Of a DNA stretch of 46,219 nt, positions 9,271 through 45,792 are shown one piece after another. Each line of letters opens with the position of its first letter. Positions within the stretch are counted from its first letter, which is position 1. Source of the DNA: Nemertoderma westbladi (Eukaryota; Animalia; Xenacoelomorpha). The notes under the pieces were generated by a model. That model had not been told where the DNA came from and did no database searches. It was given only the letters and a program-made list of their open reading frames with translations. The translations under genes were made by a program, and so were the position numbers. Location: contig JAUCBJ010001637.1 in NCBI GenBank assembly GCA_032718475.1, positions 1-46,219 on the forward strand, read 5' to 3'.

Positions 9271-9460
9271 GGGGGTGTAACTTTTGCGTAGAGGTATAGC
9301 CTACATAGAGGCTACATGTAGGTATGTGTAGCCTACATGTAGATGCACGTGTAGGGTGAATGTAGGTAGGTGTAGGGGGTGTAACTTTTGCGTAGAGGTA
9401 TAGCCTATATAGAGGCTACATGAAGGTAGGCAAAAGGAGCTACGCAAAAGATATACCCGG
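9271..9460. repeat. ~55-bp direct repeat plus a short inverted copy upstream of the otubain ATG
   Basis: ggggtgtaacttttgcgtagaggtatagccta(c/t)atagaggctacatg occurs at ~9272 and ~9376. ctacgcaaaagatatacc at ~9440 is an imperfect reverse complement of its start. Confidence 0.75.
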
Positions 9461-9670
9461 TGTGTTGCCATTTCTTGCCAATACTGCAGTAGACCTACCG
9501 GTACAGCGCTACAGCCAGACACAGCAGTGCGATACCGTTACCAGGTTACCGTCGTACATACTGACATAACTGCGTAATCCTGTAACCAGATAACTGTTAT
9601 ATTTTTGTGTAGGCCTATTATTGGCGTCTACCTACAGGTCTATCTGTATTTTGCTTTCATTTACTGCGCT

Positions 9671-9905
9671 ATGAATATCGCAAATGAGTGTGCCGTGGCA
9701 CCAGGGAAGTTTGAAGATGATTCCACCAAATGCAAACCATCAAAGGTAGGCATACAGGAAAACGGGGACCAAGAAGACATTCCGGTATCGGACGAATCAA
9801 ATCAGATGGAGAATGGGCCTGCCGGCACCTCGCCGCCCCTCATTTATTTTACCCCACCGGATGGATCGCCTGACGCACAGACTCTACCGGTGATACCTAT
9901 TTCAG
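9671..9905 (+). CDS. OTUB1: Otubain (OTUB1-like) probable coding exon 1, acidic/Pro-rich N-terminal extension
   Basis: ATG at 9671 opens a frame to the donor CAG|GTGGGT at 9905/9906. Its phase 1 matches exon 2. No recognisable homology, so the assignment rests on phase and position. Confidence 0.6.
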
Positions 9906-10450
9906 GTGGGTGGTTTGGTTACTGGTTAGGCTGTTAGGTCAGTAGGTTGCCCAACTTCTTAGGCCTAGGCTAGCGCTAGGCCTACTGCTGTACTGCAGTA
10001 CTGTCAGCAGGTAGGCAGGTCAGACTGTATTTGTAGTAGATATACCGTCTGACCGTGTACCGGTACAGCTCATGCTGACATACATAGTGTAATGCTGTAA
10101 TGATAGTTATTCATACATAAACAAAATGTTCTAGAACATGGACGGTTGATTTATTAAATAGAATACCGGTATGCCTGTCTGCCTTTAGCAGAGGCAAATA
10201 CATGCAACCTTTGAACGCCCATATGTATCTGTATCTCAGCTTCCGTAATTTTCATCGTAATGTTGATTGTGTTACATACGGTAGGCCCTATTTGGCAGTT
10301 TGGGGGATTGATACTTTGGGGACCGTCCCTTGAAACTCTTATATATATATAGCCTATAGGCCTACCCTAAATATATATAGGGGCCTACCGCTTATATTTT
10401 ATGTAGCACTTTTTACAATTTTTTTCATAAGTGTTTTTTACTGTCTGACC

Positions 10451-10565
10451 TAGAAAAGCCTGCCTCTGTAACCTGCTCCTTTCCCTCATTTGGAAAAGTG
10501 GTCGTTTATTGTTTTTTATTGTTTTGGTTAGAAAGGCATGCCTCTGTAACCTGCTCCTTTCCCTC
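10451..10565 (+). repeat. 37-bp direct duplication of the pyrimidine-rich tract preceding the exon-2 acceptor
   Basis: tagaaa(a/g)gc(c/a)tgcctctgtaacctgctcctttccctc occurs at 10451-10487 and 10529-10565. Confidence 0.85.
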
Positions 10566-10576
10566 TGTTTATTTAG

Positions 10577-10731
10577 ATTACGACTTACACGAGGCGACTC
10601 GCAGACAAGAGGAGGACATTCATAACGAAATCGTTTCTACGAGTTTATTAATAAACGGACAGGTGGAATCCTTGGAGAAACTCAAAACAGAGTACATCGG
10701 AGGCGATCCCATATTTATTAACACAATCGAC
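10577..10731 (+). CDS. OTUB1: Otubain coding exon 2
   Basis: Acceptor tttatttag|, donor GAC|GTATGT. DYDLHEATRRQEEDIHNEI...LEKLKTEYIGGDPIFINTID aligns with the OTUB1 segment YDEAIMAQQDRIQQEI...LYKEYAEDDNIYQQKIK. Confidence 0.88.
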
Positions 10732-10735
10732 GTAT

Positions 10736-11717
10736 GTATTAGTTAGATGGGGTATTAGTTAGATTGGGTATTAGTTAGATTGGGTATTAGTTAGATTGGG
10801 TATGGGATAGGTATTAGTTAGATGGGGTATTAGTTAGATTGGGTATGGGATAGGTATTAGTTAGATCGGTATTAGTTAGATGGGGTATTAGTTAGATTGG
10901 GTATTAGTTAGATCGGTATTAGTTAGATCGGTATTAGTTAGATTGGGTATTAGTTAGATCGGTATTAGTTAGATTGGGTATGGGATGGGTATTAGTTAGA
11001 TTGGGTACCGGTATGGGATAGGTATTAGTTAGATCGGTATTAGTTAGATTGGGTATTAATTAGATTGGGTATTAGTTAGATTGGGTATTAGTAGATTGGG
11101 TATTAGTAGATTGGGTATTAGTTAGATTGGGTATTAGTTAGATTGGGTATTAGTTAGATTGGGTATTAGTTAGATTGGGTATGGGAATTGGATGGGTATT
11201 AGTTAGATCGGTATTAGTTAGATTGGGTATTAATTAGATTGGGTATTAGTTAGATTGGGTATTAGTAGATTGGGTATTAGTAGATTGGGTATTAGTTAGA
11301 TTGGGTATTAGTTAGATTGGGTATTAGTTAGATTGGGTATTAGTTAGATTGGGTATGGGAATTGGATGGGTATTAGTTAGATCGGTATTAATTAGATCGG
11401 GTATTAGTTAGATCGGGTATTAGTTAGATTCGGTATTAGTTAGATTGGGTATTAGTTAGATTGGGTATGGGTATATATTAGTTAGATCGGTTTTAATTCG
11501 ATTTGGGTATGGGATGGGTATTAGTTAGATTGGATACCGGTATGGGTATATCGGTATTAGTTAGATTGGTATTAGTTAGATTGGTATTAATTAGATTGGG
11601 TATTAGTTAGATTGGGTATTAGTAGATTGGGTATTAGTAGATTGGGTATTAGTTAGATCGGTATTAATTCGATTTGGGTATGGGATGGGTATTAGTTAGG
11701 ATTGGGTATTAGTTAGA
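10736..11717 (+). repeat. Intron-2 minisatellite, 15-16-bp unit (GGGTATTAGTTAGATT / CGGTATTAGTTAGAT), ~60 copies; degenerate continuation at ~11958-12050
   Basis: Directly visible; begins 4 nt after the exon-2 boundary. Confidence 0.95.
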
Positions 11718-12175
11718 GTCAAGCCCTGGAGGTCTCGTGATTAATAAGGTTATATCACAGTATCACAATGTATTTATACATGGTACAAAGCCAATAAGCA
11801 AGCTACGGTATACACCAATATACTATTAAAGGGTGACCGTTAGCAGTGCAGTACAAGCACTAAATATTTATACATGCAGGGTCTGACAGTACAGTATATC
11901 TGGTAGAATAAAGTAGGTCTAGCTCAGTCTAGGGTCCCCTATAGATCTCGGATCTCCATAGTTAGATTGGGTAATGGGTATGTGTATTAGTTTGGGTATT
12001 ATTTAGATTAGGTCGTAGTTATATCGGGTACTAGTTAGATCGACTAATATAGTTGATTAGTTATTCTAAACTAAACTAAGCCTCAAAAGGTGTATTGACT
12101 ATATTTCACGAATCAACCTTATGCGCAGACTACCTGAAGACCCGAATAATTAATTATATATAACTTGTATTCCAG

Positions 12176-12385
12176 ACCGTTATGAGGATCTACCCATGCA
12201 TGCGTCGTTCCCGTGGGGATGGCAACTGTTTCTTCCGTTCATTTTCCTTCGCTTACTTCGAGCGGCTCATCGGGAATCCGGACCCGGAAGAGTTCGAGAG
12301 ATTCTACGGCGTCATCGAGAAATCACTGGACGAACTGGTCGTGTTGGGATTCCCGAGGTTCACCTGCGAGGACTTCTACTCAACG
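12176..12385 (+). CDS. OTUB1: Otubain coding exon 3 (catalytic Asp/Cys)
   Basis: Acceptor ttgtattccag|, donor ACG|GTGAGT. TVMRIYPCMRRSRGDGNCFFRSFSFAYFE...LGFPRFTCEDFYST matches OTUB1 RKTRPDGNCFYRAF...GFTEFTIEDFHNT. 210 nt, phase 0/0. Confidence 0.95.
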
Positions 12386-15300
12386 GTGAGTTAGTGTAAT
12401 GAGTTCAACTCAACGGTGAGTTAGTGTAAGGACTTCTACTCAACGGTGAGTTAGTGTAAGGAGTTCCAACGGTGAGTTAGTGTAAGGAGTTCTACTCAAC
12501 GGTGAGTTAGTGTAAGGACTTCTACTCAACGGTGAGTTAGTGTAAGGAGTTCAACTCAACGGTGAGTTAGTGTAAGGAGTTTAACTTAACGGTGAGTTAG
12601 TGTAAGGACTTCTACTCAACGGTGAGTTAGTGTAAGGAGTTCTACGCAACGGTGAGTTAGTGTAAGGAGTTCTACTCAACGGTGAGTTAGTGTAAGGAGT
12701 TCTACTCAACGGTGAGTTAGTGTAAAGAGTTATACTCAACGGTGAGTTAGTGTAAGGAGTTCAACTCAACGGTGAGTTAGTGTAAGGAGTTCTACTCAAC
12801 GGTGAGTTAGTGTAAGGAGTTCAACTTAACGGTGAGTTAGTGTAAGGAGTTCAACTCAACGGTGAGTTAGTGTAAGGAGTTCAACTCAACGGTGAGTTAG
12901 TGTAAAGAGTTATACTCAACGGTAAGTTAGTGTAAGGAGTTCTACTTAACGGTGAGTTAGTGTAAGAACTTCTACTCAACGGTGAGTTAGTGTAAGGAGA
13001 AACTCAACGGTGAGTTACTGTAAGGAGTACTACTCAAACGGTGAGTTAGTGTAAGAACTTATACTCAACGGTGAGTTAGTGTAAGGAGTTCTACTCAACG
13101 GTGAGTTAGTGTAAAGAGTTCTACTAAACGGTGAGTTAGTGTAAGGAGTTCTACTCACGGTGAGTTAGTGTATGGAGTTCTACTCAACGGTGAGTTAGTG
13201 TAAAGAGTTCTACTAAACGGTGAGTTAGTGTAAGGAGTTCTACTCACGGTGAGTTAGTGTATGGAGTTCTACTTAACGGTGAGTTAGTGTAAGGAGTTCT
13301 ACTCAACGGTGAGTTACTGTAAGGACTTCTACTCAACGGTGAGTTAGTGTAAGAACTTATACTCAACGGTGAGTTAGTGTAAAGAGTTCTACTAAACGGC
13401 GAGTTAGTGTAAGGAGTTCTACTCACGGTGAGTTAGTGTATGGAGTTCTACTTAACGGTGAGTTAGTGTAAGGAGTTCTACTCAACGGTGAGTTAGTGTA
13501 GGGAGTTCTACTCAACGGTGAGTTAGTGTAAGGAGTTCTACTCAACGGTGAGTTAGTGTAAGAACTTCTACTCAACGGTGAGTTAGTGTAAGGAGTTCTA
13601 CTAAACGGTGAGTTAGTGTAAGGAGTTCTACTCAACGGTGAGTTAGTGTAAGGAGTTCTACTCAACGGTGAGTTAGTGTAAGAACTTCTACTCAACGGTG
13701 AGTTAGTGTAAGGAGTTCTACTAAACGGTGAGTTAGTGTAAGGAGTTCTACTCACGGTGAGTTAGTGTATGGAGTTCTACTTAACGGTGAGTTAGTGTAA
13801 GGAGTTCTACTCAACGGTGAGTTAGTGTAAGGAGTTCTACTTAACGGTGAGTTAGTGTAAGGAGTTTTACTCGACGGTGAGTTAGTGTAAGGAGTTCTAC
13901 TTAACGGTGAGTTAGTGTAAGGAGTTCTACTCGACGGTGAGTTAGTGTAAGGAGTTCTACTTAACGGTGAGTTAGTATAAGGAGTTCTACTCAACGGTGA
14001 GTTAGTGTAAGGAGTTTAACTCAACGGTGAGTTAGTGTAAGGAGTTCTACTCAACGGTGAGTTAGTGTAAGGAGTTCAACTCAACGGTGAGTTAGTGTAA
14101 GGAGTTCTACTCACGGTGAGTTAGTGTAAGGAGTTCTACTCAACGATGAGAAGGACTTCTACTCAACGGTGAATTAGTGTAAGGAGTTCTACTCAACGGT
14201 GAGTTAGTGTAAGGAGTTCTACTCAACGGTGAGTTAGTGTAGGAATTCTCCTAAATGGTGAGGTAAGGAGTTCTACTCGAGGGTGAGTTAGTGTAAGGAC
14301 TTCTACTCAACGGTGAGTTAGTGTAAGAACTTCTACTCAACGGTGAGTTAGTGTAAGGAGTTCTACTCAACGGTGAGTTAGTATATTAATTCTACTTAAC
14401 GGTGAGTTAGTGTAAGGAGTTTTACTCAACGGTGAGTTAGTGTAAGGAGTTCTACTCAAAGGTGAGTTAGTGTAGGAATTCTACTCAACGGTGAGTTAGT
14501 GTAAGGACTTCTACTCAACGGTGAGTTAGTGTAAGAACTTCTACTCAACGGTGAGTTAGTGTAAGGAGTTCAACTCAACGGTGAGTTAGTGTAAGGAGTT
14601 CTACTCAAAGGTGAGTTAGTGTGGTGAGTTATTGTAAGGAGTTCTACTCAACGGTGAGTTAGTGTAAGGACTTCTACTCAACGGTGAGTTAGTGTAAGGA
14701 GTTCTACTCAACGGTGAGTTAGTGTAAGGACTTCTACTCAACGGTGAGTTAGTGTAAGGAGTTCTACTCAACGGTGAGTTAGTTTAAGGAGTTCTACTCA
14801 ACGGTGAGTTAGTGTAAGGAGTTCTACTCAACAATGACTTTGTGTAAGGAGTTCTACTCAACGGTGAGTTAGTGTAAGGAATTCTGCTCAACGGTGAGTT
14901 AGTGTAAAGAGTTCTACTTAACGGTGAGTTAGTGTAAGGAGTTCTACTCAACGGTGCGTTAGTGTAAGGAATTCTACTCAACGGTGAGTTAGTGTAAGGA
15001 GTTATACTCAACGGTGAGTTAGTGTAAGGAGTTCTAAACAACGGTGAGTTAGTGTAAGGAGTTCCAACGGTGAATTAGTGTAAGGAGTTCTACTCAACGG
15101 TGAGTTAATGTAAAGAGTTCTACTCAACGGTGAGTTAGTGTAAGGAGTTCTACTCAACGGTGAGTTAATGTAAGGAGTTCTACTCAACGGTGAGTTAGTG
15201 TAAGGAGTTATACTCAACGGTGAGTTAGTGTAAGGAGTTCTAAACAACGGTGAGTTAGTGTAAGGAGTTCCAACGGTGAATTAGTGTAAGGAGTTCTACT

Positions 15301-18300
15301 CAACGGTGAGTTAATGTAAAGAGTTCTACTCAACGGTGAGTTAGTGTAAGGAGTTCTACTCAACGGTGAGTTAATGTAAGGAGTTCTACTCAACGGTGAG
15401 TTAGTGTAAGGAGTTCTACTCAACGATGAGTTAATGTAAAGAGTTCTACTCAACGGTGAGTTAGTGTAAGGAGTTCTACTCAACGGTGAGTTAATGTAAG
15501 GAGTTCTACTCAACGGTGAGTTAGTGTAAGAACTTCTACTCAACGGTGAGTTAATGTAAGGAGTTCCAACGGTGAGTTATTGTATGGAGTTCTACTCAAC
15601 GGTGAGTTAGTATAAGGACTTCTAATCAACGGTGAGTTAGTGTAAGGAGTTCTACTCAACGATGAGAAGGACTTCTACTCAACGGTGAATTAGTGTAAGG
15701 AGTTCTACTCAACGGTGAGTTAATGTAAAGAGTTCTACTCAACGGTGAGTTAGTGTAAGGAGTTCTACTCAACGGTGAGTTAATGTAAGGAGTTCTACTC
15801 AACGGTGAGTTAGTGTAAGAACTTCTACTCAACGGTGAGTTAATGTAAGGAGTTCCAACGGTGAGTTATTGTATGGAGTTCTACTCAACGGTTTGTTAGT
15901 ATAAGGACTTCTAATCAACGGTGAGTTAGTGTAAGGAGTTCTACTCAACGATGAGAAGGACTTCTACTCAACGGTGAATTAGTGTAAGGAGTTCTACTCA
16001 ACGGTGAGTTAATGTAAAGAGTTCTACTCAACGGTGAGTTAGTGTAAGGAGTTCTACTCAACGGTGAGTTAATGTAAGGAGTTCTACTCAACGGTGAGTT
16101 AGTGTAAGAACTTCTACTCAACGGTGAGTTAATGTAAGGAGTTCCAACGGTGAGTTATTGTATGGAGTTCTACTCAACGGTGAGTTAGTATAAGGACTTC
16201 TAATCAACGGTGAGTTAGTGTAAGGAGTTCTACTCAACGATGAGAAGGACTTCTACTCAACGGTGAATTAGTGTAAGGAGTTCTACTCAACGGTGAGTTA
16301 ATGTAAAGAGTTCTACTCAACGGTGAGTTAGTGTAAGAACTTCTACTCAACGGTGAGTTAATGTAAGGAGTTCTACTCAACGGTGAGTTAGTGTAAGAAC
16401 TTCTACTCAACGGTGAGTTAATGTAAGGAGTTCCAACGGTGAGTTATTGTATGGAGTTCTACTCAACGGTGAGTTAGTATAAGGACTTCTAATCAACGGT
16501 GAGTTAGTGTAAGGAGTTCTACTCAACGATGAGAAGGACTTCTACTCAACGGTGAATTAGTGTAAGGAGTTCTACTCAACGGTGAGTTAATGTAAAGAGT
16601 TCTACTCAACGGTGAGTTAGTGTAAGAACTTCTACTCAACGGTGAGTTAATGTAAGGAGTTCTACTCAACGGTGAGTTAGTGTAAGAACTTCTACTCAAC
16701 GGTGAGTTAATGTAAGGAGTTCTACTCAACGGTGGATTAGTGTAAGGACTTCTACTCAACGGTGAGTTAATGTAAGGAGTTCCAACGATGAGTTAATGTA
16801 AGGAGTTCCAACGGTGAGTTAATGTAAGGAGTTCAACTCAACGGTGAGTTAGTGTAAGGAGTTCCAACGGTGAGTTAATGTAAGGAGTTCTACTCAACGG
16901 TGAGTTAATGTAAGGAGTTCCAACGGTGAGTTAGTGTAAGGAGTTCAACTCAACGGTGAGTTAGTGTAAGGAGTTCTACTCAACGGTGAGTTAGTGTATG
17001 GAGTTCTACTCAACGGTGAGTTAGTGTAAGAACTTCTACTCAACGGTGAGTTAATGTAAGGAGTTCCAACGGTGAGTTAATGTAAGGAGTTCTACTCAAC
17101 GGTGAGTTAGTGTAAGAACTTCTACTCAACGGTGAGTTAATGTAAGGAGTTCCAACGGTGAGTTAATGTAAGGAGTTCTACTCAACGGTGAGTTAGTGTA
17201 AGGAGTTCCAACGGTGAGTTAATGTAAGGAGTTCTACTCAACGGTGAGTTAATGTAAAGAGTTCTACTCAACGGTGAGTTAGTGTAAGAACTTCTACTCA
17301 ACGGTGAGTTAATATAAGGAGTTCTACTCAACGGTGAGTTAGTGTAAGGAGTTCCAACGGTGAGTTAATGTAAGGAGTTCTACTCAACGGTGAGTTAATG
17401 TAAGGAGTTCCAACGATGAGTTAATGTAAGGAGTTCCAACGGTGAGTTAATGTAAGGAGTTCAACTCAACGGTGAGTTACTGTAAGGAGTTCTACTCAAC
17501 GGTGAGTTAATGTAAGGAGTTCTACTCAACGGTGAGTTAGTGTAAGAACTTCTACTCAACGGTGAGTTAATGTAAGGAGTTCCAACGGTGAGTTAATGTA
17601 AGGAGTTCTACTCAACGGTGAGTTAGTGTACGAACTTCTACTCAACGGTGAGTTAATGTAAGGAGTTCCAACGGTGAGTTAATGTAAGGAGTTCTACTCA
17701 ACGGTGAGTTAGTGTAAGGAGTTCCAACGGTGAGTTAATGTAAGGAGTTCTACTCAACGGTGAGTTAATGTAAAGAGTTCTACTCAACGGTGAGTTAGTG
17801 TAAGAACTTCTACTCAACGGTGAGTTAATATAAGGAGTTCTACTCAACGGTGAGTTAGTGTAAGGAGTTCCAACGGTGAGTTAATGTAAGGAGTTCTACT
17901 CAACGGTGAGTTAATGTAAGGAGTTCCAACGATGAGTTAATGTAAGGAGTTCCAACGGTGAGTTAATGTAAGGAGTTCAACTCAACGGTGAGTTAGTGTA
18001 AGGAGTTCTACTCAACGGTGAGTTAATGTAAGGAGTTCCAACGGTGAGTTAGTGTAAGGAGTTCAACTCAACGGTGAGTTACTGTAAGGAGTTCTACTCA
18101 ACGGTGAGTTAATGTAAGGAGTTCTACTCAACGGTGAGTTAGTGTAAGGAGTTCAACTCAACGGTGAGTTACTGTAAGGAGTTCTACTCAACGGTGAGTT
18201 AATGTAAGGAGTTCTACTCAACGGTGAGTTAGTGTAAGAACTTCTACTCAACGGTGAGTTAATGTAAGGAGTTCCAACGGTGAGTTAGTGTAAGGAGTTC

Positions 18301-21300
18301 AACTCAACGGTGAGTTACTGTAAGGAGTTCTACTCAACGGTGAGTTAATGTAAGGAGTTCTACTCAACGGTGAGTTAGTGTAAGGAGTTCAACTCAACGG
18401 TGAGTTACTGTAAGGAGTTCTACTCAACGGTGAGTTAATGTAAGGAGTTCAACTCAACGGTGAGTTAGTGTAAGGAGTTCTACTCAACGGTGAGTTAATG
18501 TAAGGAGTTCCAACGGTGAGTTAGTGTAAGGAGTTCAACTCAACGGTGAGTTACTGTAAGGAGTTCTACTCAACGGTGAGTTAATGTAAGGAGTTCTACT
18601 CAACGGTGAGTTAGTGTAAGAACTTCTACTCAACGGTGAGTTAATGTAAGGAGTTCCAACGGTGAGTTAATGTAAGGAGTTCCAACGGTGAGTTAATGTA
18701 AGGAGTTCCAACGGTGAGTTAATGTAAGGAGTTCTACTCAACGGTGAGTTAGTGTAAGAACTTCTACTCAACGGTGAGTTAATGTAAGGAGTTCTACTCA
18801 ACGGTGAGTTAGTGTAAGGAGTTCCAACGGTGAGTTAATGTAAGGAGTTCTACTCAACGGTGAGTTAATGTAAAGAGTTCTACTCAACGGTGAGTTAGTG
18901 TAAGAACTTCTACTCAACGGTGAGTTAATATAAGGAGTTCTACTCAACGGTGAGTTAGTGTAAGAACTTCTACTCAACGGTGAGTTAATGTAAGGAGTTC
19001 CAACGGTGAGTTAATGTAAGGAGTTCTACTCAACGGTGAGTTAGTGTAAGAACTTCTACTCAACGGTGAGTTAATGTAAGGAGTTCCAACGGTGAGTTAA
19101 TGTAAGGAGTTCTACTCAACGGTGAGTTAGTGTAAGAACTTCTACTCAACGGTGAGTTAATGTAAGGAGTTCCAACGGTGAATTAATGTAAGGAGTTCTA
19201 CTCAACGGTGAGTTAGTGTAAGAACTTCTACTCAACGGTGAGTTAATGTAAGGAGTTCTACTCAACGGTGAGTTAGTGTAAGAACTTCTACTCAACGGTG
19301 AGTTAATGTAAGGAGTTCCAACGGTGAGTTAATGTAAGGAGTTCTACTCAACGGTGAGTTACTGTAAGAACTTCTACTCAACGGTGAGTTACTGTAAGGA
19401 GTTCTACTCAACGGTGAGTTAGTGTAAGAACTTCTACTCAACGGTGAGTTAATGTAAGGAGTTCCAACGGTGAGTTATTGTATGGAGTTCTACTCAACGG
19501 TGAGTTAGTATAAGGACTTCTAATCAACGGTGAGTTAGTGTAAGGAGTTCTACTCAACGATGAGAAGGACTTCTACTCAACGGTGAAATAGTGTAAGGAG
19601 TTCTACTCAACGGTGAGTTAATGTAAAGAGTTCTACTCAACGGTGAGTTAGTGTAAGAACTTCTACTCAACGGTGAGTTAATGTAAAGAGTTCTACTCAA
19701 CGGTGAGTTAGTGTAAGAACTTCTACTCAACGGTGAGTTAATGTAAGGAGTTCTACTCAACGGTGAGTTAATGTAAGGAGTTCTACTCAACGGTGAGTTA
19801 ATGTAAGGAGTTCTACTCGTGAGTTAATGTAAGGAGTTCCAACGGTGAGTTAGTGTAAGGAGTTATACTTAACGGTGAGTTCGTGTAAGGACTTCTACTC
19901 AACGGTGAATTAGTGTAAGGAGTTCTACTCAACGGTGAGTTAGTGTAAGGAGTTCAACTCAACGGTGAGTTAGTGTAATGAGTTCAACGTAACGGTGAGT
20001 TAGTGTAAGGACTTCTACTCAACGGTGAGTTAGTGTAAGGAGTTCTACTAAACGGTGAGTTAGTATAAGAACTTCTACTCAACGGTGAGTTAGTGTAAGG
20101 AGTTCTACTCAACGGTGAGTTAGTGTAAGGAGTTCAACTTAACGGTGAGTTAGTGTAAGGACTTCTACTCAACGGTGAGTTAGTGTAAGGAGTTCTACTA
20201 AACGGTGAGTTAGTATAAGAACTTCTACTCAACGGTGAGTTAGTGTAAGGAGTTCTACTCAACGGTGAGTTAGTGTAAGGAGTTCAACTCAACGGTGAGT
20301 TAGTGTAAGGAGTTCAACTTAACGGTGAGTTAGTGTAAGGACTTCTACTCAACGGTGAGTTAGTGTAAGGAGTTCTACTAAACGGTGAGTTAGTGTAAGG
20401 AGTTCAACTCAACGGTGAGTTAGTGTAAGGAGTTCTACTCAACGGTGAGTTAGTGTAAGGAGTTCAACTCAACGGTGAGTTAGTGTAAGGACTTCTACTC
20501 AACGGTGAGTTAGTGTAAGGAGTTATACTCAACGGTGAGTTAGTGTAAGGACTTCTACTCAACGGTGAGATAGTGTAAGGAGTTCTACTCAACGGTGAGT
20601 TAATGTAAGGAGTTCTACACAACGGTGAGTTAGTGTAAGGAGTTCTACTCAACGGTGAGTTAGTGTAAGGAGTTCTACTCAACGGTGAGTTAGTGTAAGG
20701 AGTTCTACTCAACGGTGAGTTAGTGTAAGGAGTTCTACTCAACGGTGAGTTAATGTAAGGAGTTCCAACGGTGAGTTAGTGTAAGGAGTTCTACTCAACG
20801 GTGAGTTAGTGTAAGGAGTTCAACTCAACGGTGAGTTAATGTAAGGAGTTCTACTCAACGGTGAGTTGGTGTAAGGAGTTCTACTCAACGGTGAGTTAGT
20901 GTAAGGAGTTCTACTCAACGGTGAGTTAATGTAAGGAGTTCCAACGGTGAGTTAGTGTAAGGAGTTCTACTCAACGGTGAGTTAGTGTAAGGAGTGCAAC
21001 TCAACGGTGAGTTAGTGTAAGGACTTCTACTCAACGGTGAGTTAGTGTAAGGAGTTCTACTCAACGGTGAGTTAGTGTAAGGAGTTCTACTTAACGGTGA
21101 GTTAGTGTAAGGATTTCTACTCAACGGTGAGTTAGTGTAAGGAGTTCAACTTAACGGTGAGTTAGTGTAAGGACTTCTACTCAACGGTGAGTTAATGTAA
21201 GGAGTTCAACTCAACGGTGAGTTAGTGTAAGGAGTTCTACTCAACGGTGAGTTAGTGTACGGACTTCTACTCAACGGTGAGTTAGTGTAAGGAGTTCAAC

Positions 21301-24300
21301 TCAACGGTGAGTTAGTGTAAGGAGTTCAACTTAACGGTGAGTTAGTGTAAGGAGTTCAACTTAACGGTGAGTTAGTGTAAGGTGTTCAACTCAACGATGA
21401 GTTAATGTAAGGAGTTCCAACTGTGAGTTAGTGTAAGGACTTCTACTCAACGGTGAGTTAGTGTAAGGAGTTCTACTCAACGGTGAGTTAGTGTACGGAC
21501 TTCTACTCAACGGTGAGTTAGTGTAAGGAGTTCTACTCAACGGTGAGTTAGTGTACGGACTTCTACTCAACGGTGAGTTAGTGTAAGGAGTTCAACTCAA
21601 CGGTGAGTTAGTGTAAGGAGTTCAACTTAACGGTGAGTTAGTGTAAGGAGTTCAACTTAACGGTGAGTTAGTGTAAGGAGTTCTACTCAACAGTGAGTTA
21701 ATGTAAGGAGTTATACTCAACGGTGAGTTAGTGTAAGGAGTTCTACTCAACGGTGAGTTAGTGTAAGGAGTTCCAACGGTGAGTTAGTGTAAGGAGTTCA
21801 ACTCAACGGCGAGTTAGTGTAAGGAGTTCAACTCAACGGTGAGTTAATGTAAGGAGTTCCAACGGTGAGTTAGTGTAAGGACTTCTACTCAACGGTGAGT
21901 TAGTGTAAGGAGTTCTACTCAACGGTGAGTTAGTGTAAGGAGTTCTACTCAACGGTGAGTTAGTGTAAGGAGTTCAACTCAACGGTGAGTTAGTGTAAGG
22001 ACTTCTACTCAACGGTGAGTTCGTGTAAGGAGTTCTACTCAACGGTGAGTTAGTGTACGGACTTCTACTCAACGGTGAGTTAGTGTAAGGAGTTCTACTC
22101 AACGGTGAGTTAGTGTACGGACTTCTACTCAACGGTGAGTTAGTGTAAGGAGTTCAACTCAACGGTGAGTTAGTGTAAGGAGTTCAACTTAACGGTGAGT
22201 TAGTGTAAGGAGTTCAACTTAACGGTGAGTTAGTGTAAGGAGTTCTACTCAACAGTGAGTTAATGTAAGGAGTTATACTCAACGGTGAGTTAGTGTAAGG
22301 AGTTCTACTCAACGGTGAGTTAGTGTAAGGAGTTCAACTCAACGGTGAGTTAATGTAAGGAGTTCCAACGGTGAGTTAGTGTAAGGACTTCTACTCAACG
22401 GTGAGTTAGTGTAAGGAGTTCTACTCAACGGTGAGTTAGTGTAAGGAGTTCTACTCAACGGTGAGTTAGTGTAAGGAGTTCAACTCAACGGTGAGTTAGT
22501 GTAAGGAGTTCTACTCAACGGTGAGTTAGTGTAAGGAGTTCAACTCAACGGTGAGTTAATGTAAGGAGTTCCAACGGTGAGTTAGTGTAAGGACTTCTAC
22601 TCAACGGTGAGTTAGTGTAAGGAGTTCTACTCAACGGTGAGTTAGTGTAAGGAGTTCTACTCAACGGTGAGTTAGTGTAAGGAGTTCAACTCAACGGTGA
22701 GTTAGTGTAAGGACTTCTACTCAACGGTGAGTTAATGTAAGGAGTTCCAACGGTGAGTTAGTGTAAGGACTTCTACTCAACGGTGAGTTAGTGTAAGGAG
22801 TTCTACTCAACGGTGAGTTAGTGTAAGAAGTTCTACTTAACGGTGAGTTAGTGTAAGGAGTTCTACTCAACGGTGAGTTAGTGTAAGGAGTTCCAACGGT
22901 GAGTTAGTGTAAGGAGTTATACTCAACGGTGAGTTAGTGTAAGAACTTCTACTCAACGGTGAGTTAATGTAAGGAGTTCCAACGGTGAGTTAGTGTAAGG
23001 AGTTCCAACGGTGAGTTACTGTAAGGAGTTCAACTTAACGGTGAGTTAGTGTAAGGAGTTCCAACGGTGAGTTAGTGTAAGGAGTTCTACTCAACGGTGA
23101 GTTAGTGTAAGGAGTTCTACTCAACGGTGAGTTAGTGTAAGGAGTTCCAACGGTGAGTTAGTGTAAGGAGTTATACTCAACGGTGAGTTAGTGTAAGAAC
23201 TTCTACTCAACGGTGAGTTAATGTAAGGAGTTCCAACGGTGAGTTAGTGTAAGAAGTTCCAACGGTGAGTTACTGTAAGGAGTTCAACTTAACGGTGAGT
23301 TAGTGTAAGGAGTTCTACTCACGGTGAGTTAGTGTATGGAGTTCAACTTAACGGTGAGTTAGTGTAAGGTGTTCAACTCAACGATGAGTTAGTGTAAGGA
23401 CTTCTACTCAACGGTGAGTTAATGTAAGGAGTTCCAACGGTGAGTTAGTGTAAGGACTTCTACTCAACGGTGAGTTAGTGTAAGGAGTTCTACTCAACGG
23501 TGAGTTAGTGTAAGAAGTTCTACTTAACGGTGAGTTAGTGTAAGGAGTTCTACTCAACGGTGAGTTAGTGTAAGGAGTTCCAACGGTGAGTTAGTGTAAG
23601 GAGTTATACTCAACGGTGAGTTAGTGTAAGAACTTCTACTCAACGGTGAGTTAATGTAAGGAGTTCCAACGGTGAGTTAGTGTAAGGAGTTCCAACGGTG
23701 AGTTACTGTAAGGAGTTCAACTTAACGGTGAGTTAGTGTAAGGAGTTCCAACGGTGAGTTAGTGTAAGGAGTTCTACTCAACGGTGAGTTAGTGTAAGGA
23801 GTTCTACTCAACGGTGAGTTAGTGTAAGGAGTTCCAACGGTGAGTTAGTGTAAGGAGTTATACTCAACGGTGAGTTAGTGTAAGAACTTCTACTCAACGG
23901 TGAGTTAATGTAAGGAGTTCCGACGGTGAGTTAGTGTAAGGAGTTCCAACGGTGAGTTACTGTAAGGAGTTCAACTTAACGGTGAGTTAGTGTAAGGAGT
24001 TCTACTCACGGTGAGTTAGTGTATGGAGTTCAACTTAACGGTGAGTTAGTGTAAGGTGTTCAACTCAACGATGAGTTAATGTAAGGAGTTCCAACGGTGA
24101 GTTAGTGTAAGGAGTTCTACTCAACGGTGAGTTAGTGTAAGGAGTTCTACTCAACGGTGAGTTAGTGTAAGGAGTTCCAACGGTGAGTTAGTGTAAGGAG
24201 TTCTACTCAACGATGAGTTACTGTAAGGAGTTCAACTCAACGGTGAGTTAGTGTAAGGAGTTCTACTCAACGGTGAGTTAATGTAAGGCGTTCCAACGGT

Positions 24301-27300
24301 GAGTTAGTGTAAGGAGTTCAACTTAACGGTGAGTTAGTGTAAGGAGTTCAACTTAACGGTGAGTTAGTGTAATGAGTTCAACTCAACGGTGAGTTAGTGT
24401 AAGGAGTTCCAACTGTGAGTTAGTGTAAGGACTTCTACTCAACGGTGAGTTAGTGTAAGGAGTTCTACTCAACGGTGAGTTAGTGTAAGGAGTTCTACTC
24501 AACGGTGAGTTAGTGTAAGGAGTTCTACTCAACGGTGAGTTAGTGTAAGGAGTTCAACTCAACGGTGAGTTAGTGTAAGGACTTTTACTCAACGGTGAGA
24601 TAGTGTAAGGAGTTCTACTCAACGGTGAGTTAGTCTAAGGACTTCTACTCAACGGTGAGTTAGTGTAAGGAGTTCTAACGGTGAGTTAGTGTAAGGAGTT
24701 CTACTCAACGGTGAGTTAGTGTAAGGAGTTCTACTCAACGGTGAGTTAGTGTAAGGAGTTCAACTCAACGGCGAGTTAATGTAAGGAGTTCCAACGGTGA
24801 GTTAGTGTAAGGACTTTTACTCAACGGTGAGTTAGTGTAAGAGTTCTACTCAACGGTGAGTTAGTGTAAGGAGTTCTACTCAACGGTGAGTTAGTGTAAG
24901 GAGTTCTACTCAACGGTGAGTTAGTGTAAGGAGTTCTACTCAACGGTGAGTTAGTGTAAGGAGTTCTACTCAACGGTGAGTTAGTGTAAGGAGTTCAACT
25001 CAACGGCGAGTTAATGTAAGGAGTTCCAACGGTGAGTTAGTGTAAGGACTTTTACTCAACGGTGAGTTAGTGTAAGGAGTTCTACTCAACGGTGAGTTAG
25101 TGTAAGGAGTTCTACTCAACGGTGAGTTAGTGTAAGGAGTTCTACTCAACGGTGAGTTAGTGTAAGGAGTTCCAACGGTGAGTTAGTGTAAGGACTTTTA
25201 CTCAACGGTGAGTTAGTGTAAGGAGTTCTACTCAACGGTGAGTTAGTGTAAGGAGTTCTACTCAACGGTGAGTTAGTGTAAGGAGTTCTACTCAACGGTG
25301 AGTTAGTGTAAGGAGTTCTACTCAACGGTGAGTTAGTGTAAGGAGTTCCAACGGTGAGTTACTGTAAGGAGTTCAACTTAACGGTGAGTTAGTGTAAGGA
25401 GTTCCAACGGTGAGTTAGTGTAAGGAGTTCTACTCAACGGTGAGTTAGTGTAAGGAGTTCTACTCAACGGTGAGTTAGTGTAAGGAGTTCCAACGGTGAG
25501 TTAGTGTAAGGAGTTATACTCAACGGTGAGTTAGTGTAAGAACTTCTACTCAACGGTGAGTTAATGTAAGGAGTTCCAACGGTGAGTTAGTGTAAGGAGT
25601 TCCAACGGTGAGTTACTGTAAGGAGTTCAACTTAACGGTGAGTTAGTGTAAGGAGTTCTACTCACGGTGAGTTAGTGTATGGAGTTCAACTTAACGGTGA
25701 GTTAGTGTAAGGTGTTCAACTCAACGATGAGTTAATGTAAGGAGTTCCAACGGTGAGTTAGTGTAAGGAGTTCTACTCAACGGTGAGTTAGTGTAAGGAG
25801 TTCTACTCAACGGTGAGTTAGTGTAAGGAGTTCCAACGGTGAGTTAGTGTAAGGAGTTCTACTCAACGATGAGTTACTGTAAGGAGTTCAACTCAACGGT
25901 GAGTTAGTGTAAGGAGTTCTACTCAACGGTGAGTTAATGTAAGGCGTTCCAACGGTGAGTTAGTGTAAGGAGTTCAACTTAACGGTGAGTTAGTGTAAGG
26001 AGTTCAACTTAACGGTGAGTTAGTGTAATGAGTTCAACTCAACGGTGAGTTAGTGTAAGGAGTTCCAACTGTGAGTTAGTGTAAGGACTTCTACTCAACG
26101 GTGAGTTAGTGTAAGGAGTTCTACTCAACGGTGAGTTAGTGTAAGGAGTTCTACTCAACGGTGAGTTAGTGTAAGGAGTTCTACTCAACGGTGAGTTAGT
26201 GTAAGGAGTTCAACTCAACGGTGAGTTAGTGTAAGGACTTTTACTCAACGGTGAGATAGTGTAAGGAGTTCTACTCAACGGTGAGTTAGTGTAAGGACTT
26301 CTACTCAACGGTGAGTTAGTGTAAGGAGTTCTAACGGTGAGTTAGTGTAAGGAGTTCTACTCAACGGTGAGTTAGTGTAAGGAGTTCTACTCAACGGTGA
26401 GTTAGTGTAAGGAGTTCCAACGGTGAGTTAGTGTAAGGAGTTCTACTCAACGGTGAGTTAGTGTAAGGACTTCTACTCAACGGTGAGTTAGTGTAAGGAG
26501 TTCTAACGGTGAGTTAGTGTAAGGAGTTCTACTCAACGGTGAGTTAGTGTAAGGAGTTCTACTCAACGGTGAGTTAGTGTAAGGAGTTCCAACGGTGAGT
26601 TAGTGTAAGGAGTTCTACTCAACGGTGAGTTAGTGTAAGGAGTTCAACTCAACGGCGAGTTAATGTAAGGAGTTCCAACGGTGAGTTAGTGTAAGGACTT
26701 TTACTCAACGGTGAGTTAGTGTAAGGAGTTCTACTCAACGGTGAGTTAGTGTAAGGAGTTCTACTCAACGGTGAGTTAGTGTAAGGAGTTCTACTCAACG
26801 GTGAGTTAGTGTAAGGAGTTCTACTCAACGGTGAGTTAGTGTAAGGAGTTCTACTCAACGGTGAGTTAGTGTAAGGAGTTCAACTCAACGGCGAGTTAAT
26901 GTAAGGAGTTCCAACGGTGAGTTAGTGTAAGGACTTTTACTCAACGGTGAGTTAGTGTAAGGAGTTCTACTCAACGGTGAGTTAGTGTAAGGAGTTCTAC
27001 TCAACGGTGAGTTAGTGTAAGGAGTTCTACTCAACGGTGAGTTAGTGTAAGGAGTTCCAACGGTGAGTTAGTGTAAGGACTTTTACTCAACGGTGAGTTA
27101 GTGTAAGGAGTTCTACTCAACGGTGAGTTAGTGTAAGGAGTTCTACTCAACGGTGAGTTAGTGTAAGGAGTTCTACTCAACGGTGAGTTAGTGTAAGGAG
27201 TTCTACTCAACGGTGAGTTAGTGTAAGGAGTTCCAACGGTGAGTTAGTGTAAGGACTTTTACTCAACGGTGAGTTAGTGTAAGGAGTTCTACTCAACGGT

Positions 27301-30300
27301 GAGTTAGTGTAAGGAGTTCTACTCAACGGTGAGTTAGTGTAAGGAGTTCTACTCAACGGTGAGTTAGTGTAAGGAGTTCAACTCAACGGTGAGTTAATGT
27401 AAGGAGTTCCAACGGTGAGTTAGTGTAAGGACTTCTACTCAACGGTGAGTTAGTGTAAGGACTTCTACTCAACGGTGAGTTAGTGTAAGGAGTTCTACTC
27501 AACGGTGAGTTAGTGTAAGGAGTTCTACTCAACGGTGAGTTAGTGTAAGGAGTTCTACTCAACGGTGAGTTAGTGTAAGAACTTCTACTCAACGGTGAGT
27601 TAATGTAAGGAGTTCCAACTGTGAGTTAGTGTAAGGACTTCTACTCAACGGTGAGTTACTGTAAGGAGTTCTACTCAACGGTGAGTTAGTGTAAGGAGTT
27701 CCAACGGTGAGTTACTGTAAGGAGTTCCAACGGTGAGTTAGTGTAAGGAGTTATACTCAACGGTGAGTTAGTGTAAGGAGTTCCAACGGTGAGTTACTGT
27801 AAGGAGTTCCAACGGTGAGTTAGTGTAAGGAGTTATACTCAACGGTGAGTTAGTGTAAGGACTTCTACTCAACGGTGAGTTAATGTAAGGAGTTCCAACG
27901 GTGAGTTAGTGTAAGGACTTCTACTCAACGGTGAGTTACTGTAAGGAGTTCTACTCAACGGTGAGTTAGTGTAAGGAGTTCTACTCAACGGTGAGTTAAT
28001 GTAAGGAGTTCCAACGGTGAGTTAGTGTAAGGAGTTCAACTCAACGGTGAGTTACTGTAAGGACTTCAACTCAACGGTGAGTTAGTGTAAGGAGTTCAAC
28101 TCAACGGTGAGTTACTGTAAGGAGTTCAACTCAACGGTGAGTTAGTGTAAGGAGTTCTACACAACGGTGAGTTAGTGTAAGGACTTCTACTCAACGGTGA
28201 GTTAATGTAAGGAGTTCTACACAACGGTGAGTTAATGTAAGGAGTTCCAACGGTGAGTTAATGTAAGGAGTTCCAACGGTGAGTTAGTGTAAGGAGTTAT
28301 ACTCAACGGTGAGTTAGTGTAAGGAGTTCCAACGGTGAGTTAATGTAAGGAGTTCCAACGGTGAGTTAGTGTAAGGACTTCTACTCAACGGTGAGTTAGT
28401 GTAAGGAGTTCTACTCAACGGTGAGATAGTGTAAGGAGTTCTACTCAACGGTGAGTTAGTGTAAGGAGTTCAACTCAACGGTGAGTTAATGTAAGGAGTT
28501 CCAACGGTGAGTTAGTGTAAGGACTTCTACTCAACGGTGAGTTAGTGTAAGGAGTTATACTCAACGGTGAGTTAGTGTAAGGAGTTCTACTCAACGGTGA
28601 GTTAGTGTACGGACTTCTACTCAACGGTGAGTTAATGTAAGGAGTTAAACTCAACGATGAGTTAGTGTAAGGAGTTCTACTCAACGGTGAGATAGTGTAA
28701 GGAGTTCTACTCAACGGTGAGTTAGTGTAAGGAGTTCAACTAAACGGTGAGTTAATGTAAGGAGTTCCAACGGTGAGTTAGTGTAAGGACTTCTACTCAA
28801 CGGTGAGTTAGTGTAAGGAGTTATACTCAACGGTGAGTTAGTGTAAGGAGTTCTACTCAACGGTGAGTTAGTGTACGGACTTCTACTCAACGGTGAGTTA
28901 ATGTAAGGAGTTCAACTCAACGGTGAGTTAGTGTAAGGAGTTCTACTCAACGGTGAGTTAGTGTAAGGAGTTCTACTCAACGGTGAGTTAGTGTAAGAAG
29001 TTCCAACGGTGAGTTAGTGTAAGGAGTTCTACTCAACGGTGAGTTAGTGTAAGGAGTTCCAACGGTGAGTTAGTGTAAGGAGTTCTACTCAACGGTGAGT
29101 TAGTGTAAGGAGTTCTACTCAACGGTGAGTTAGTGTAAGAAGTTCCAACGGTGAGTTAGTGTAAGGAGTTCTACTCAACGGTGAGTTAGTGTAAGGAGTT
29201 CCAACGGTGAGTTAGTGTAAGGAGTTCTACTCAACGGTGAGTTCGTGTAAGGAGTTCTACTCAACGGTGAGTTAGTGTAAGAAGTTCCAACGGTGAGTTA
29301 GTGTAAGGAGTTCTACTCAACGGTGAGTTAGTGTAAGGAGTTCCAACGGTGAGTTAGTGTAAGGACTTCTACTCAACGGTGAGTTAGTGTAAGGAGTTCT
29401 ACTAAACGGTGAGTTAATGTAAGGAGTTCCAACGGTGAGTTAATGTAAGGAGTTCTACTCAACGGTGAGTTAGTGTAAGGAGTTCTACTCAACGGTGAGT
29501 TAGTGTAAGAAGTTCCAACGGTGAGTTAGTGTAAGGAGTTCTACTCAACGGTGAGTTAGTGTAAGGAGTTCCAACGGTGAGTTAGTGTAAGGACTTCTAC
29601 TCAACGGTGAGTTAGTGTAAGGACTTCTACTCAACGGTGAGTTAGTGTAAGGACTTCTACTCAACGGTGAGTTAGTGTAAGGACTTCTACTCAACGGTGA
29701 GTTAGTGTAAGGACTTCTACTCAACGGTGAGTTAGTGTAAGGAGTTCTACTAAACGGTGAGTTAATGTAAGGCGTTCCAACGGTGAGTTAGTGTAAGGAG
29801 TTCAACTTAACGGTGAGTTAATGTAAGGAGTTCCAACGGTGAGTTACTGTAAGGAGTTCCAACGGTGAGTTAGTGTAAGGAGTTATACTCAACGGTGAGT
29901 TAGTGTAAGGACTTCTACTCAACGGTGAGTTAATGTAAGGAGTTCCAACGGTGAGTTAGTGTAAGGAGTTCTACTCAACGGTGAGTTAGTGTAAGGAGTT
30001 CTACTCAACGGTGAGTTAGTGTAAGGAGTTCTACTCAACGGTGAGTTAGTGTATGGAGTTCTACTCAACGGTGAGTTAGTGTAAGGAGTTCTACTCAACG
30101 GTGAGTTAGTGTAAGGAGTTCTACTCAACGGTGAGTTAGTGTAAGAACTTCTACTCAACGGTGAGTTAATGTAAGGAGTTCCAACTGTGAGTTAGTGTAA
30201 GGACTTCTACTCAACGGTGAGTTACTGTAAGGAGTTCTACTCAACGGTGAGTTAGTGTAAGGAGTTCTACTCAACGGTGAGTTAATGTAAGGAGTTCCAA

Positions 30301-33300
30301 CGGTGAGTTAGTGTAAGGAGTTCAACTCAACGGTGAGTTACTGTAAGGAGTTCAACTCAACGGCGAGTTAATGTAAGGAGTTCCAACGGTGAGTTAGTGT
30401 AAGGACTTTTACTCAACGGTGAGTTAGTGTAAGGAGTTCTACTCAACGGTGAGTTAGTGTAAGGAGTTCTACTCAACGGTGAGTTAGTGTAAGGAGTTCT
30501 ACTCAACGGTGAGTTAGTGTAAGGAGTTCTACTCAACGGTGAGTTAGTGTAAGGAGTTCTACTCAACGGTGAGTTAGTGTAAGGAGTTCAACTCAACGGC
30601 GAGTTAATGTAAGGAGTTCCAACGGTGAGTTAGTGTAAGGACTTTTACTCAACGGTGAGTTAGTGTAAGGAGTTCTACTCAACGGTGAGTTAGTGTAAGG
30701 AGTTCTACTCAACGGTGAGTTAGTGTAAGGAGTTCTACTCAACGGTGAGTTAGTGTAAGGAGTTCCAACGGTGAGTTAGTGTAAGGACTTTTACTCAACG
30801 GTGAGTTAGTGTAAGGAGTTCTACTCAACGGTGAGTTAGTGTAAGGAGTTCTACTCAACGGTGAGTTAGTGTAAGGAGTTCTACTCAACGGTGAGTTAGT
30901 GTAAGGAGTTCTACTCAACGGTGAGTTAGTGTAAGGAGTTCCAACGGTGAGTTAGTGTAAGGACTTTTACTCAACGGTGAGTTAGTGTAAGGAGTTCTAC
31001 TCAACGGTGAGTTAGTGTAAGGAGTTCTACTCAACGGTGAGTTAGTGTAAGGAGTTCTACTCAACGGTGAGTTAGTGTAAGGAGTTCAACTCAACGGTGA
31101 GTTAATGTAAGGAGTTCCAACGGTGAGTTAGTGTAAGGACTTCTACTCAACGGTGAGTTAGTGTAAGGACTTCTACTCAACGGTGAGTTAGTGTAAGGAG
31201 TTCTACTCAACGGTGAGTTAGTGTAAGGAGTTCTACTCAACGGTGAGTTAGTGTAAGGAGTTCTACTCAACGGTGAGTTAATGTAAGGAGTTCCAACTGT
31301 GAGTTAGTGTAAGGACTTCTACTCAACGGTGAGTTACTGTAAGGAGTTCTACTCAACGGTGAGTTAGTGTAAGGAGTTCCAACGGTGAGTTACTGTAAGG
31401 AGTTCCAACGGTGAGTTAATGTAAGGAGTTCCAACGGTGAGTTAGTGTAAGGAGTTCTACTCAACGGTGAGTTAGTGTAAGGAGTTCCAACGGTGAGTTA
31501 ATGTAAGGAGTTCCAACGGTGAGTTAGTGTAAGGACTTCTACTCAACGGTGAGTTAGTGTAAGGAGTTCTACTCAACGGTGAGATAGTGTAAGGAGTTCT
31601 ACTCAACGGTGTGTTAGTGTAAGGAGTTCAACTCAACGGTGAGTTAATGTAAGGAGTTCCAACGGTGAGTTAGTGTAAGGACTTCTACTCAACGGTGAGT
31701 TAGTGTAAGGAGTTATACTCAACGGTGAGTTAGTGTAAGGAGTTCTACTCAACGGTGAGTTAGTGTACGGACTTCTACTCAACGGTGAGTTAATGTAAGG
31801 AGTTAAACTCAACGATGAGTTAGTGTAAGGAGTTCTACTCAACGGTGAGATAGTGTAAGGAGTTCTACTCAACGGTGAGTTAGTGTAAGGAGTTCAACTA
31901 AACGGTGAGTTAATGTAAGGAGTTCCAACGGTGAGTTAGTGTAAGGACTTCTACTCAACGGTGAGTTAGTGTAAGGAGTTATACTCAACGGTGAGTTAGT
32001 GTAAGGAGTTCTACTCAACGGTGAGTTAGTGTACGGACTTCTACTCAACGGTGAGTTAATGTAAGGAGTTCAACTCAACGGTGAGTTAGTGTAAGGAGTT
32101 CTACTCAACGGTGAGTTAGTGTAAGGAGTTCTACTCAACGGTGAGTTAGTGTAAGAAGTTCCAACGGTGAGTTAGTGTAAGGAGTTCTACTCAACGGTGA
32201 GTTAGTGTAAGGAGTTCCAACGGTGAGTTAGTGTAAGGAGTTCTACTCAACGGTGAGTTAGTGTAAGGAGTTCTAACGGTGAGTTAGTGTAAGGAGTTCT
32301 ACTCAACGGTGAGTTAGTGTAAGGAGTTCTACTCAACGGTGAGTTAGTGTAAGGAGTTCCAACGGTGAGTTAGTGTAAGGAGTTCTACTCAACGGTGAGT
32401 TAGTGTAAGGAGTTCAACTCAACGGCGAGTTAATGTAAGGAGTTCCAACGGTGAGTTAGTGTAAGGACTTTTACTCAACGGTGAGTTAGTGTAAGGAGTT
32501 CTACTCAACGGTGAGTTAGTGTAAGGAGTTCTACTCAACGGTGAGTTAGTGTAAGGAGTTCTACTCAACGGTGAGTTAGTGTAAGGAGTTCTACTCAACG
32601 GTGAGTTAGTGTAAGGAGTTCTACTCAACGGTGAGTTAGTGTAAGGAGTTCAACTCAACGGCGAGTTAATGTAAGGAGTTCCAACGGTGAGTTAGTGTAA
32701 GGACTTTTACTCAACGGTGAGTTAGTGTAAGGAGTTCTACTCAACGGTGAGTTAGTGTAAGGAGTTCTACTCAACGGTGAGTTAGTGTAAGGAGTTCTAC
32801 TCAACGGTGAGTTAGTGTAAGGAGTTCCAACGGTGAGTTAGTGTAAGGACTTTTACTCAACGGTGAGTTAGTGTAAGGAGTTCTACTCAACGGTGAGTTA
32901 GTGTAAGGAGTTCTACTCAACGGTGAGTTAGTGTAAGGAGTTCTACTCAACGGTGAGTTAGTGTAAGGAGTTCTACTCAACGGTGAGTTAGTGTAAGGAG
33001 TTCCAACGGTGAGTTAGTGTAAGGACTTTTACTCAACGGTGAGTTAGTGTAAGGAGTTCTACTCAACGGTGAGTTAGTGTAAGGAGTTCTACTCAACGGT
33101 GAGTTAGTGTAAGGAGTTCTACTCAACGGTGAGTTAGTGTAAGGAGTTCAACTCAACGGTGAGTTAATGTAAGGAGTTCCAACGGTGAGTTAGTGTAAGG
33201 ACTTCTACTCAACGGTGAGTTAGTGTAAGGACTTCTACTCAACGGTGAGTTAGTGTAAGGAGTTCTACTCAACGGTGAGTTAGTGTAAGGAGTTCTACTC

Positions 33301-44582: not shown

Positions 44583-44774
44583 TTTCTGTCTGTTCTTAAC
44601 GAACTCAAGACTTGTACACTTGACGATCTGGTAACGAAGATGAATGACCAATGTTTATCGGATTATATTGTAGTTTATTTACGACTTATCGTATCCGGTT
44701 ACCTTCAAACCAATCAGGAATTCTTTACGGCTTTCATAGAAGGGGGTCGAACAGTGAAAGAATTCTGTCAGATG
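44583..44774 (+). CDS. OTUB1: Otubain coding exon 4
   Basis: Acceptor tttcgttttag|, donor ATG|GTAAGT. FLSVLNELKTCTLDDLVTKMNDQCLSDYIVVYLRLIVSGYLQTNQEFFTAFIEGGRTVKEFCQM continues directly from exon 3 in the OTUB1 alignment. Missing from the ORF track. Confidence 0.95.
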
Positions 44775-45573: not shown

Positions 45574-45792
45574 GAAGTTGAGCCGATGAATAGGGAGTCC
45601 GACCACATCCACATAATAGCGGTGAGTTCGGCGCTGGCGGTGGGCATACGAATAGTTTACCTGGACCGTACCGGGTCTGGTATCCAGGAACACACCTTCC
45701 CAGACGATAAACCCCCCAGTGTTACTCTACTCTACCGACCCGGCCATTACGACGTACTCTACTCTAAGGAGACGCCATCTAACCCCGCTTAG
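45574..45792 (+). CDS. OTUB1: Otubain coding exon 5 (catalytic His, stop codon)
   Basis: Acceptor ttaattacag|. EVEPMNRESDHIHIIAVSSAL...YLDR...LLYRPGHYDVLY...TAG. Confidence 0.95.
   Translation, partial: EVEPMNRESDHIHIIAVSSALAVGIRIVYLDRTGSGIQEHTFPDDKPPSVTLLYRPGHYDVLYSKETPSNPA

Follow-up and report, generated by a model that had tools for sequence, protein, structure and literature searches.

A length-variable minisatellite abutting the splice donor of intron 2 in an otubain gene of Nemertoderma westbladi

Two consecutive introns of an otubain gene of Nemertoderma westbladi carry a tandem array at their 5' splice site, which raises the question of whether a splice donor can itself give rise to a minisatellite, and of how an array in such a place is borne by the gene. 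The window analysed here is the whole stretch of 46,219 nucleotides (contig JAUCBJ010001637.1 of assembly GCA_032718475.1, positions 1 to 46,219), and all coordinates refer to it.

The gene and its surroundings

The array-bearing gene encodes an otubain, an OTUB1-type deubiquitinase, on the + strand. Coding exon 1 (9671..9905) is an open frame that runs from the ATG to a phase-1 donor and is spliced to exon 2 in a contig. Exon 2 (10577..10731) ends in the residues PIFINTID, its last letters being ATCGAC, and the spliced contig passes from 10731 into exon 3; the spacing of its tail matches that of the two homologues, out of 13, with which it was compared. Exon 3 (12176..12385) contains the catalytic GDGNC motif, has a Pfam Peptidase_C65 match (E 8.8e-18), matches solved PDB chains of OTUB1 and OTUB2, and is spliced to exons 2 and 4. 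Exon 4 (44583..44774; Peptidase_C65, E 6.3e-16) follows directly on 12385 in the spliced contig, and exon 5 (45574..45792; Peptidase_C65, E 3.2e-22) carries the stop. Exons 1 and 2, each searched alone, gave no Pfam match. Together the five exons make 336 codons with no internal stop, and the introns of 671, 1,444, 32,197 and 799 nt are all of the GT..AG type. The otubain homologues found, mite and tick sequences among them, are at most 63% identical. At position 9721 of exon 1, samples S2 and S3 have a 6-nt in-frame insertion relative to the window.

Repeats of several other kinds surround these exons. Two copies of a 56-nt element lie at 10432-10565 (86% alike, 78 nt apart); the element ends 11 nt before the intron-1 acceptor and provides its pyrimidine tract, and a summed contig depth of 0.6-1.5 million, against 12-23 for single-copy DNA, marks it as a very abundant dispersed repeat. 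An Rfam search of 9400-12450, covering both this element and the intron-2 array, returned no match at E 1, and a high-copy element of the same genome, used to scan metagenomes, gave one contig of 1,252 nt. Tandem duplications are also found away from the coding-region donors, as a 28-bp unit present eight times (6062-6281), a 44-bp unit present twice (7515-7603) and a 54-nt pair 104 apart (9271-9428), which mark the region as prone to duplication. On the reverse strand, two long open frames at 3787-5679 (400 and 170 aa, the longer with a weak HECT match, E 2e-5) adjoin long inverted repeats (295-1154 versus 2944-3806, 78-94%) that contain two 287-bp tandem pairs, and frames and inverted repeats together possibly represent a mobile element. 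A further reverse-strand frame of 106 aa (7757-8077) shows a likeness to the tail of RTE-type LINE reverse transcriptases; it has no match in Pfam, and a similar stretch is seen by eye at about 45990-46219, past the otubain gene.

Anatomy of the intron-2 array

The true 5' splice site of intron 2, GTATGT (10732..10737, + strand, phase 0), directly follows the end of exon 2 at 10731, and the intron opens with GTATGTATTAGTTAGATGGG. An earlier note, made from the letters alone, had described an array of about 1 kb beside this donor, and such an array was indeed recovered: TRF places the main minisatellite at 10736..11717 on the + strand, with a period of 16, 63.8 copies and 80% matches. The same note had the array starting immediately at the donor, which is true insofar as unit 1 overlaps the donor and provides its +5/+6 GT; the array itself starts at intron base +5, not +1. 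The span 10725..12050, which had been read as one array, does hold the array together with relic repeats, but a single-copy spacer of 241 bp separates the two.

The 16-bp unit is GTATTAGTTAGATTGG, with 15-bp variants that have an ATCG tail and 11-bp variants of the form GTATGG. The commonest parsed tokens are GTATTAGTTAGATTGG (23), GTATTAGTTAGATCG (8) and GTATTAGTAGATTGG (6), and the 11-nt GTATGG forms are interspersed among them. When up to three mismatches were allowed, the unit matched 49 sites in the 46-kb window against 0.84 expected, all of them on the + strand and in intron 2 (47 in the array, two in the relic). A dispersed element or introner was rejected on this confinement to intron 2 within the window, and on a summed depth of ~3-30x single copy for the unit, compared with >20,000x for the element at 10440-10565, depth being taken as a rough guide. 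A higher-order duplication within the array (11021..11390, + strand; TRF period 174) includes a 196-nt exact run at lag 174, the mark of a recent block duplication. The core of the array is homogenised and its distal edge diverged: in 100-nt windows, identities/mismatches/gaps reach 100/0/2 in the core and 84/14/10 in the relic, and the most diverged copies stand 1.2 kb from the donor.

Beyond the array, the spacer (11718..11958) is non-repetitive and has single-copy depth (~17 in run X1, with two bins higher, to 28, and ~24 in run X2), the same as exon 3. A reading of the spacer as a high-copy transposon was rejected at this depth, and its apparent 8-nt target duplication is indistinguishable from the repeat register. 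The decayed relic (11959..12065, + strand) holds ~6-7 units and scores 116 against the 16-mer, compared with a background maximum of 34 in 430 windows and with 0 of 2,000 shuffles reaching its score. The word ATCGAC occurs only twice in the 46 kb, both strands considered, at the end of exon 2 and at the 3' end of the relic (12039). The 10-mer GACTAATATA also has two sites in the window, one at the 3' end of the relic (12042-12051) and one just beyond the intron-3 array (44384-44393); this sharing (P ~0.004 for random 51-nt pairs, post hoc) may be due to chance.

Several familiar classes of repeat do not fit the array. An interstitial telomeric repeat was rejected, with no TTAGGG and a single TTAGG in 10732-11717, as was a G-quadruplex minisatellite (four G3 runs, loops of 1-7 nt), for which no motif was found and seven appeared only with loops of up to 13 nt. 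RNA structure was discarded as well, with z scores of -0.09 and -0.32 at the two junctions and 0.24 at the relic.

Splicing, sample variation and the copied sites

Contigs of four of six runs, none of the six recorded as RNA, were compared over 9600-10770 and 11645-12445, which take in the two ends of the array and its flanks. Runs X2 and X3 come from one sample, S2, and X1 may come from the window's own sample. One contig of 1,153 nt from run X4 skips intron 1 (671 nt, GT..AG), passes from 10731 to 12176 and continues from 12385 into exon 4; in this single contig from a single run, introns 2 and 3 are both spliced from their first donor. Run X4 is labelled 'DNA?', and we read it as RNA-derived because its contig is spliced, although the contig may come from a processed copy. 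Assembled contigs drop rare forms, and the absence of X4 over the arrays says nothing about splice forms that are rare.

A single-copy contig of S2 leads from intron 1 across exon 2 and enters the first units, with the same donor-adjacent array start as in the window, and at both array ends contigs of two samples enter the units from unique DNA. Compared with the window, S2 lacks one 16-nt unit of the relic, following 12028, and a further 7 nt following 11968; its array end is rearranged. Intron 2 differs between samples by unit-sized indels. In S2 the repeat units of both arrays reach, relative to single-copy DNA, a summed depth ~5-10x below that of S1, a rough hint and not a copy number. For the intron-3 array this relative depth is ~tenfold lower in S2, which hints at very large length variation.

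The suggestion that the units carry donor-like sites holds for 10 GTATGG units, but as donors the copies are poor. None of the 114 GT sites in the array is GTATGT and none matches GTRAGT at more than 4 of 6 positions, against 5, 5, 6 and 6 for the four real donors, and +5G is kept in 10 of the 64 GTAT starts. Read-through from exon 2 does meet a TAG at codon 5, as the earlier note had seen; the position of this stop is nevertheless unremarkable (P 0.29 within five codons). In non-array intron DNA, 29% of positions reach a stop within five codons (median 10), and across introns 1-4 the read-through stop comes at codons 11, 5, 3 and 4, introns 1 and 4 being without arrays. The resemblance between unit variants and the junction is marginal (P 0.01-0.05, and 0.30 with the encoded residues fixed). 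The end of exon 2 agrees with a one-copy unit variant at 10 of 14 positions at a 2-nt offset, a level that none of 974 coding positions and 441 of 24,544 window positions reached, and in a profile test the exon-end likeness was equalled at 9 or 14 of 973 coding positions and at 4-5% of 24,555 window positions; offsets and variants had been picked after the sequence was seen. This likeness is weak and post hoc, with nothing beyond what the encoded residues bring.

The array of intron 3 differs in kind, because it copies the exon end with intact donors. Its 30-bp unit, present in ~1,100 copies over 32 kb (12369..44375, + strand), copies the final 17 nt of exon 3 along with an intact GTGAGT donor; identity to the end of exon 3 is 18/21, and 1,014 GGTGAGT sites are present. 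From these features it can be taken as a true 'mirage' minisatellite, in the sense of the lancelet arrays discussed below. The intron-2 array is independent of it, as had been proposed, the longest common word of the two units being 6 nt (P 0.19-0.25). The word AGTTAG, which had been put forward as a shared core, is present in both consensus units, but among 20,000 trials a common word of at least 6 nt arose in 19% when both units were shuffled and in 25% when one was, so that the sharing stays at chance level. No enrichment of TTAG cores on the sense strand was seen in this gene, where 2,028 nt of non-array intron gave 11 sense and 13 antisense sites.

Probable origin and tolerance of the array

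Taken together, we consider it probable, with a good measure of doubt, that the intron-2 array is an ordinary length-variable VNTR that arose by replication slippage seeded at the donor and was then tolerated. The array, the relic, the first-donor splicing of one contig and the sample indels are observations, and from them we infer the steps of origin. Slippage between short direct repeats within the first ~20 intron bases would have provided the seed, in that GTAT, present at 10732, 10736 and 10752, and possibly the exon-end ATCG or ATCGAC as well, may have given a 16-21-nt tandem duplication. Copies would have spread only intron-ward, since changes towards the exon would be selected against. 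The 241-bp piece would then have isolated the distal copies, which decayed into the relic, and the donor-side block would have gone on homogenising and growing in unit and 174-bp steps. The winning 16-mer would be one without +5G, which would explain why most copies are poor donors. Intron-ward spread could be tolerated because the upstream donor wins and because 63 of the 64 copy GTAT sites stand downstream of an in-frame stop, and the array likely persists since the spliceosome stays with the original upstream donor. Tolerance of this kind accounts for survival of the array, not for an excess of arrays at donors.

Seeding at the donor is favoured by the sharp 5' edge, which overlaps the donor, as opposed to the decayed 3' end, and by the survival of donor-like minor variants (GTATATATTAG at 11471, GTATGTGTATTAG at 11978 within the relic, and the 10 GTATGG units). 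The likeness to the exon end, weak as it is, exceeds that at most random positions. The ATCGAC pair sits where flanking microhomology would be expected, but the AC after the relic ATCG also fits as the first two letters of ACTAATA, which is the unit core in reverse complement, and we read this as confounding the microhomology. A 21-nt junction unit was rejected as the best fit of the relic, for which it scores 62, far below the 16-mer. Tandem duplication mediated by microhomology was reportedly treated by Haber and Louis in 1998. Duplications of this type are described as mostly neutral and as purged from coding DNA (PMC13167724). The intron-2 array resembles them in the short direct repeats that flank its unit (GTAT, possibly ATCGAC), whereas the mechanism set out in the accessible part of that source is one of general replication, with no link there to introns or splicing (PMC13167724).

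It is rather unlikely, though conceivable, that the repeat was instead born inside intron 2, with the relic as the older seed, and reached the donor by chance or through loss of intervening DNA, the exon stopping its spread; the array would then be donor-adjacent, not donor-derived. Such an origin would suit a dominant unit that starts at +5 without exon sequence or a full donor, as well as the 1.2 kb between the donor and the most diverged copies. Moreover, array and relic take up roughly three-quarters of intron 2 (1,444 nt), and a start near the donor has a probability of ~0.05 by position alone. What weighs against it is that unit 1 overlaps donor positions +5/+6, that the junction is indicated by donor-like variants and by the single match of ATCGAC, and that the 5' edge has no decayed flank.

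The view of the earlier note, a lineage-wide birth of arrays at 5' splice sites coupled to transcription or splicing, seems to us more doubtful again. The lesion behind it could be, for example, an R-loop or a paused polymerase on a G-rich sense strand. The intron-3 array, with its intact donor, would then be young and the intron-2 array an older one that has shed its donor, both expanded on one haplotype. An array opens two of the four coding-region introns, and by position alone an array start would coincide with the donor with a probability of ~0.04-0.06 in intron 2 and 0.15 in intron 3; the product, below 1%, is post hoc and comes from a window picked from a very large scan. The sense strand is G-rich in both arrays (skew 0.89 in intron 2, 0.37 in intron 3), non-array intron DNA being near 0 or negative. 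Against this stand the small number of cases (two, in a single gene, selected after the fact), the chance-level sharing of AGTTAG, the lack of canonical G4 motifs in both arrays, the ordinary RNA fold at both junctions and the frequency of duplications outside genes in this region too. In addition, lancelet mirages are described at donors and acceptors alike (PMC3087553).

That selection keeps the array, whether as a splicing enhancer made of G-runs or as a dial that sets otubain expression through its length, is highly improbable. G-runs support weak donors, and dense GGG triplets do stand directly behind a donor of poor exonic pairing (GAC|GTATGT); this donor nevertheless has +5G and +6T already, and the array shows unit-sized indels and rearrangement between two samples. 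A length effect on splicing is reported for the ABCA7 VNTR (PMC5954066). Finally, we give hardly any credence to an assembly artefact in the array or its length, even though none of the contigs listed spans the array and repeat depth relative to single copy is lower in S2, given that contigs of two samples cross the boundary between unique DNA and units at both ends and that the variant units and the 174-bp higher-order repeat are structured; the exact length stands as assembled.

The locus stands beside systems that have already been described. Splice-signal repeats are known from lancelets and humans, including a gene that carries them at two neighbouring exons. In human ABCA7, a 25-bp VNTR of 12 to about 427 units occupies intron 18, its unit starting at +1 (PMC5954066). 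The intron-2 array is like it in flanking an exon, in a first unit that includes donor positions and in units that open with GT; it differs in starting at +5 and in that no copy is used in one contig, while in ABCA7 the second copy serves as a cryptic donor and exon skipping is influenced by array length (PMC5954066). In human F7, a 37-bp VNTR spans the donor of intron 7 and the most upstream donor alone is used (PMC1557585). Here too the first element lies at the donor and the upstream donor is used, but the F7 copies are identical functional donors, unlike the intron-2 copies, which mostly lack +5G (PMC1557585). From the position of unit 1, which starts at +5 and provides +5/+6, the array can be classed as a donor-abutting VNTR of the ABCA7/F7 type.

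The closest parallel to the pair of arrays is lancelet PGBD5, in which two unrelated tandem repeats of 60 and 108 bp abut the 5' splice sites of the consecutive exons 3 and 4 (PMC3902484). Two arrays at consecutive donors are therefore a pattern already described there. Both loci have their first units at donors of consecutive exons, and copy number in PGBD5 differs between assemblies (PMC3902484); the PGBD5 repeats overlap the exon with 2-7 long units, in contrast to the 16-bp, ~64-copy and mostly intronic array of intron 2 (PMC3902484). Lancelet 'mirage' minisatellites are reported in Adh3, the globins BflGb6 and BflGb9, and troponin C (PMC3087553). They occupy both exon-intron boundaries and vary in length with splicing intact, and their mechanism and origin are called unclear (PMC3087553). 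A boundary array with normal splicing, haplotype length variation, a homogenised core and a diverged edge is common to both, but units of mirages visibly copy exon and intron, which suits the intron-3 array and, faintly, that of intron 2 (PMC3087553). In the latter, splicing at the authentic site (one X4 contig), sample variation and the homogenised core with a diverged edge are found, whereas a unit spanning the exon-intron boundary is seen only as the 10/14 agreement of a one-copy variant (P 0.01-0.05, or 0.30 given the residues), and as to the splice signal, the units start with GT, yet none of 114 sites is GTATGT and 10 of 64 have +5G. The intron-2 array is a possible mirage in the strict sense, though its units hardly copy the exon. 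A literature search, made mostly at the level of abstracts, found no genome-wide invertebrate survey of array starts relative to donors.

To conclude, the intron-2 array adds one more splice-donor VNTR to a known class, and it can serve as a marker and as a caution in gene prediction. Were arrays to arise genome-wide at used donors more frequently than at matched sites that are not used, this would provide a mechanism for mirages of the lancelet type, and such preferential seeding would open a route to the many-fold lengthening of introns or to new introns. The pair formed by intron 3, with intact donors, and intron 2, with eroded ones, would in that case be a natural test of whether copied donors are purged.
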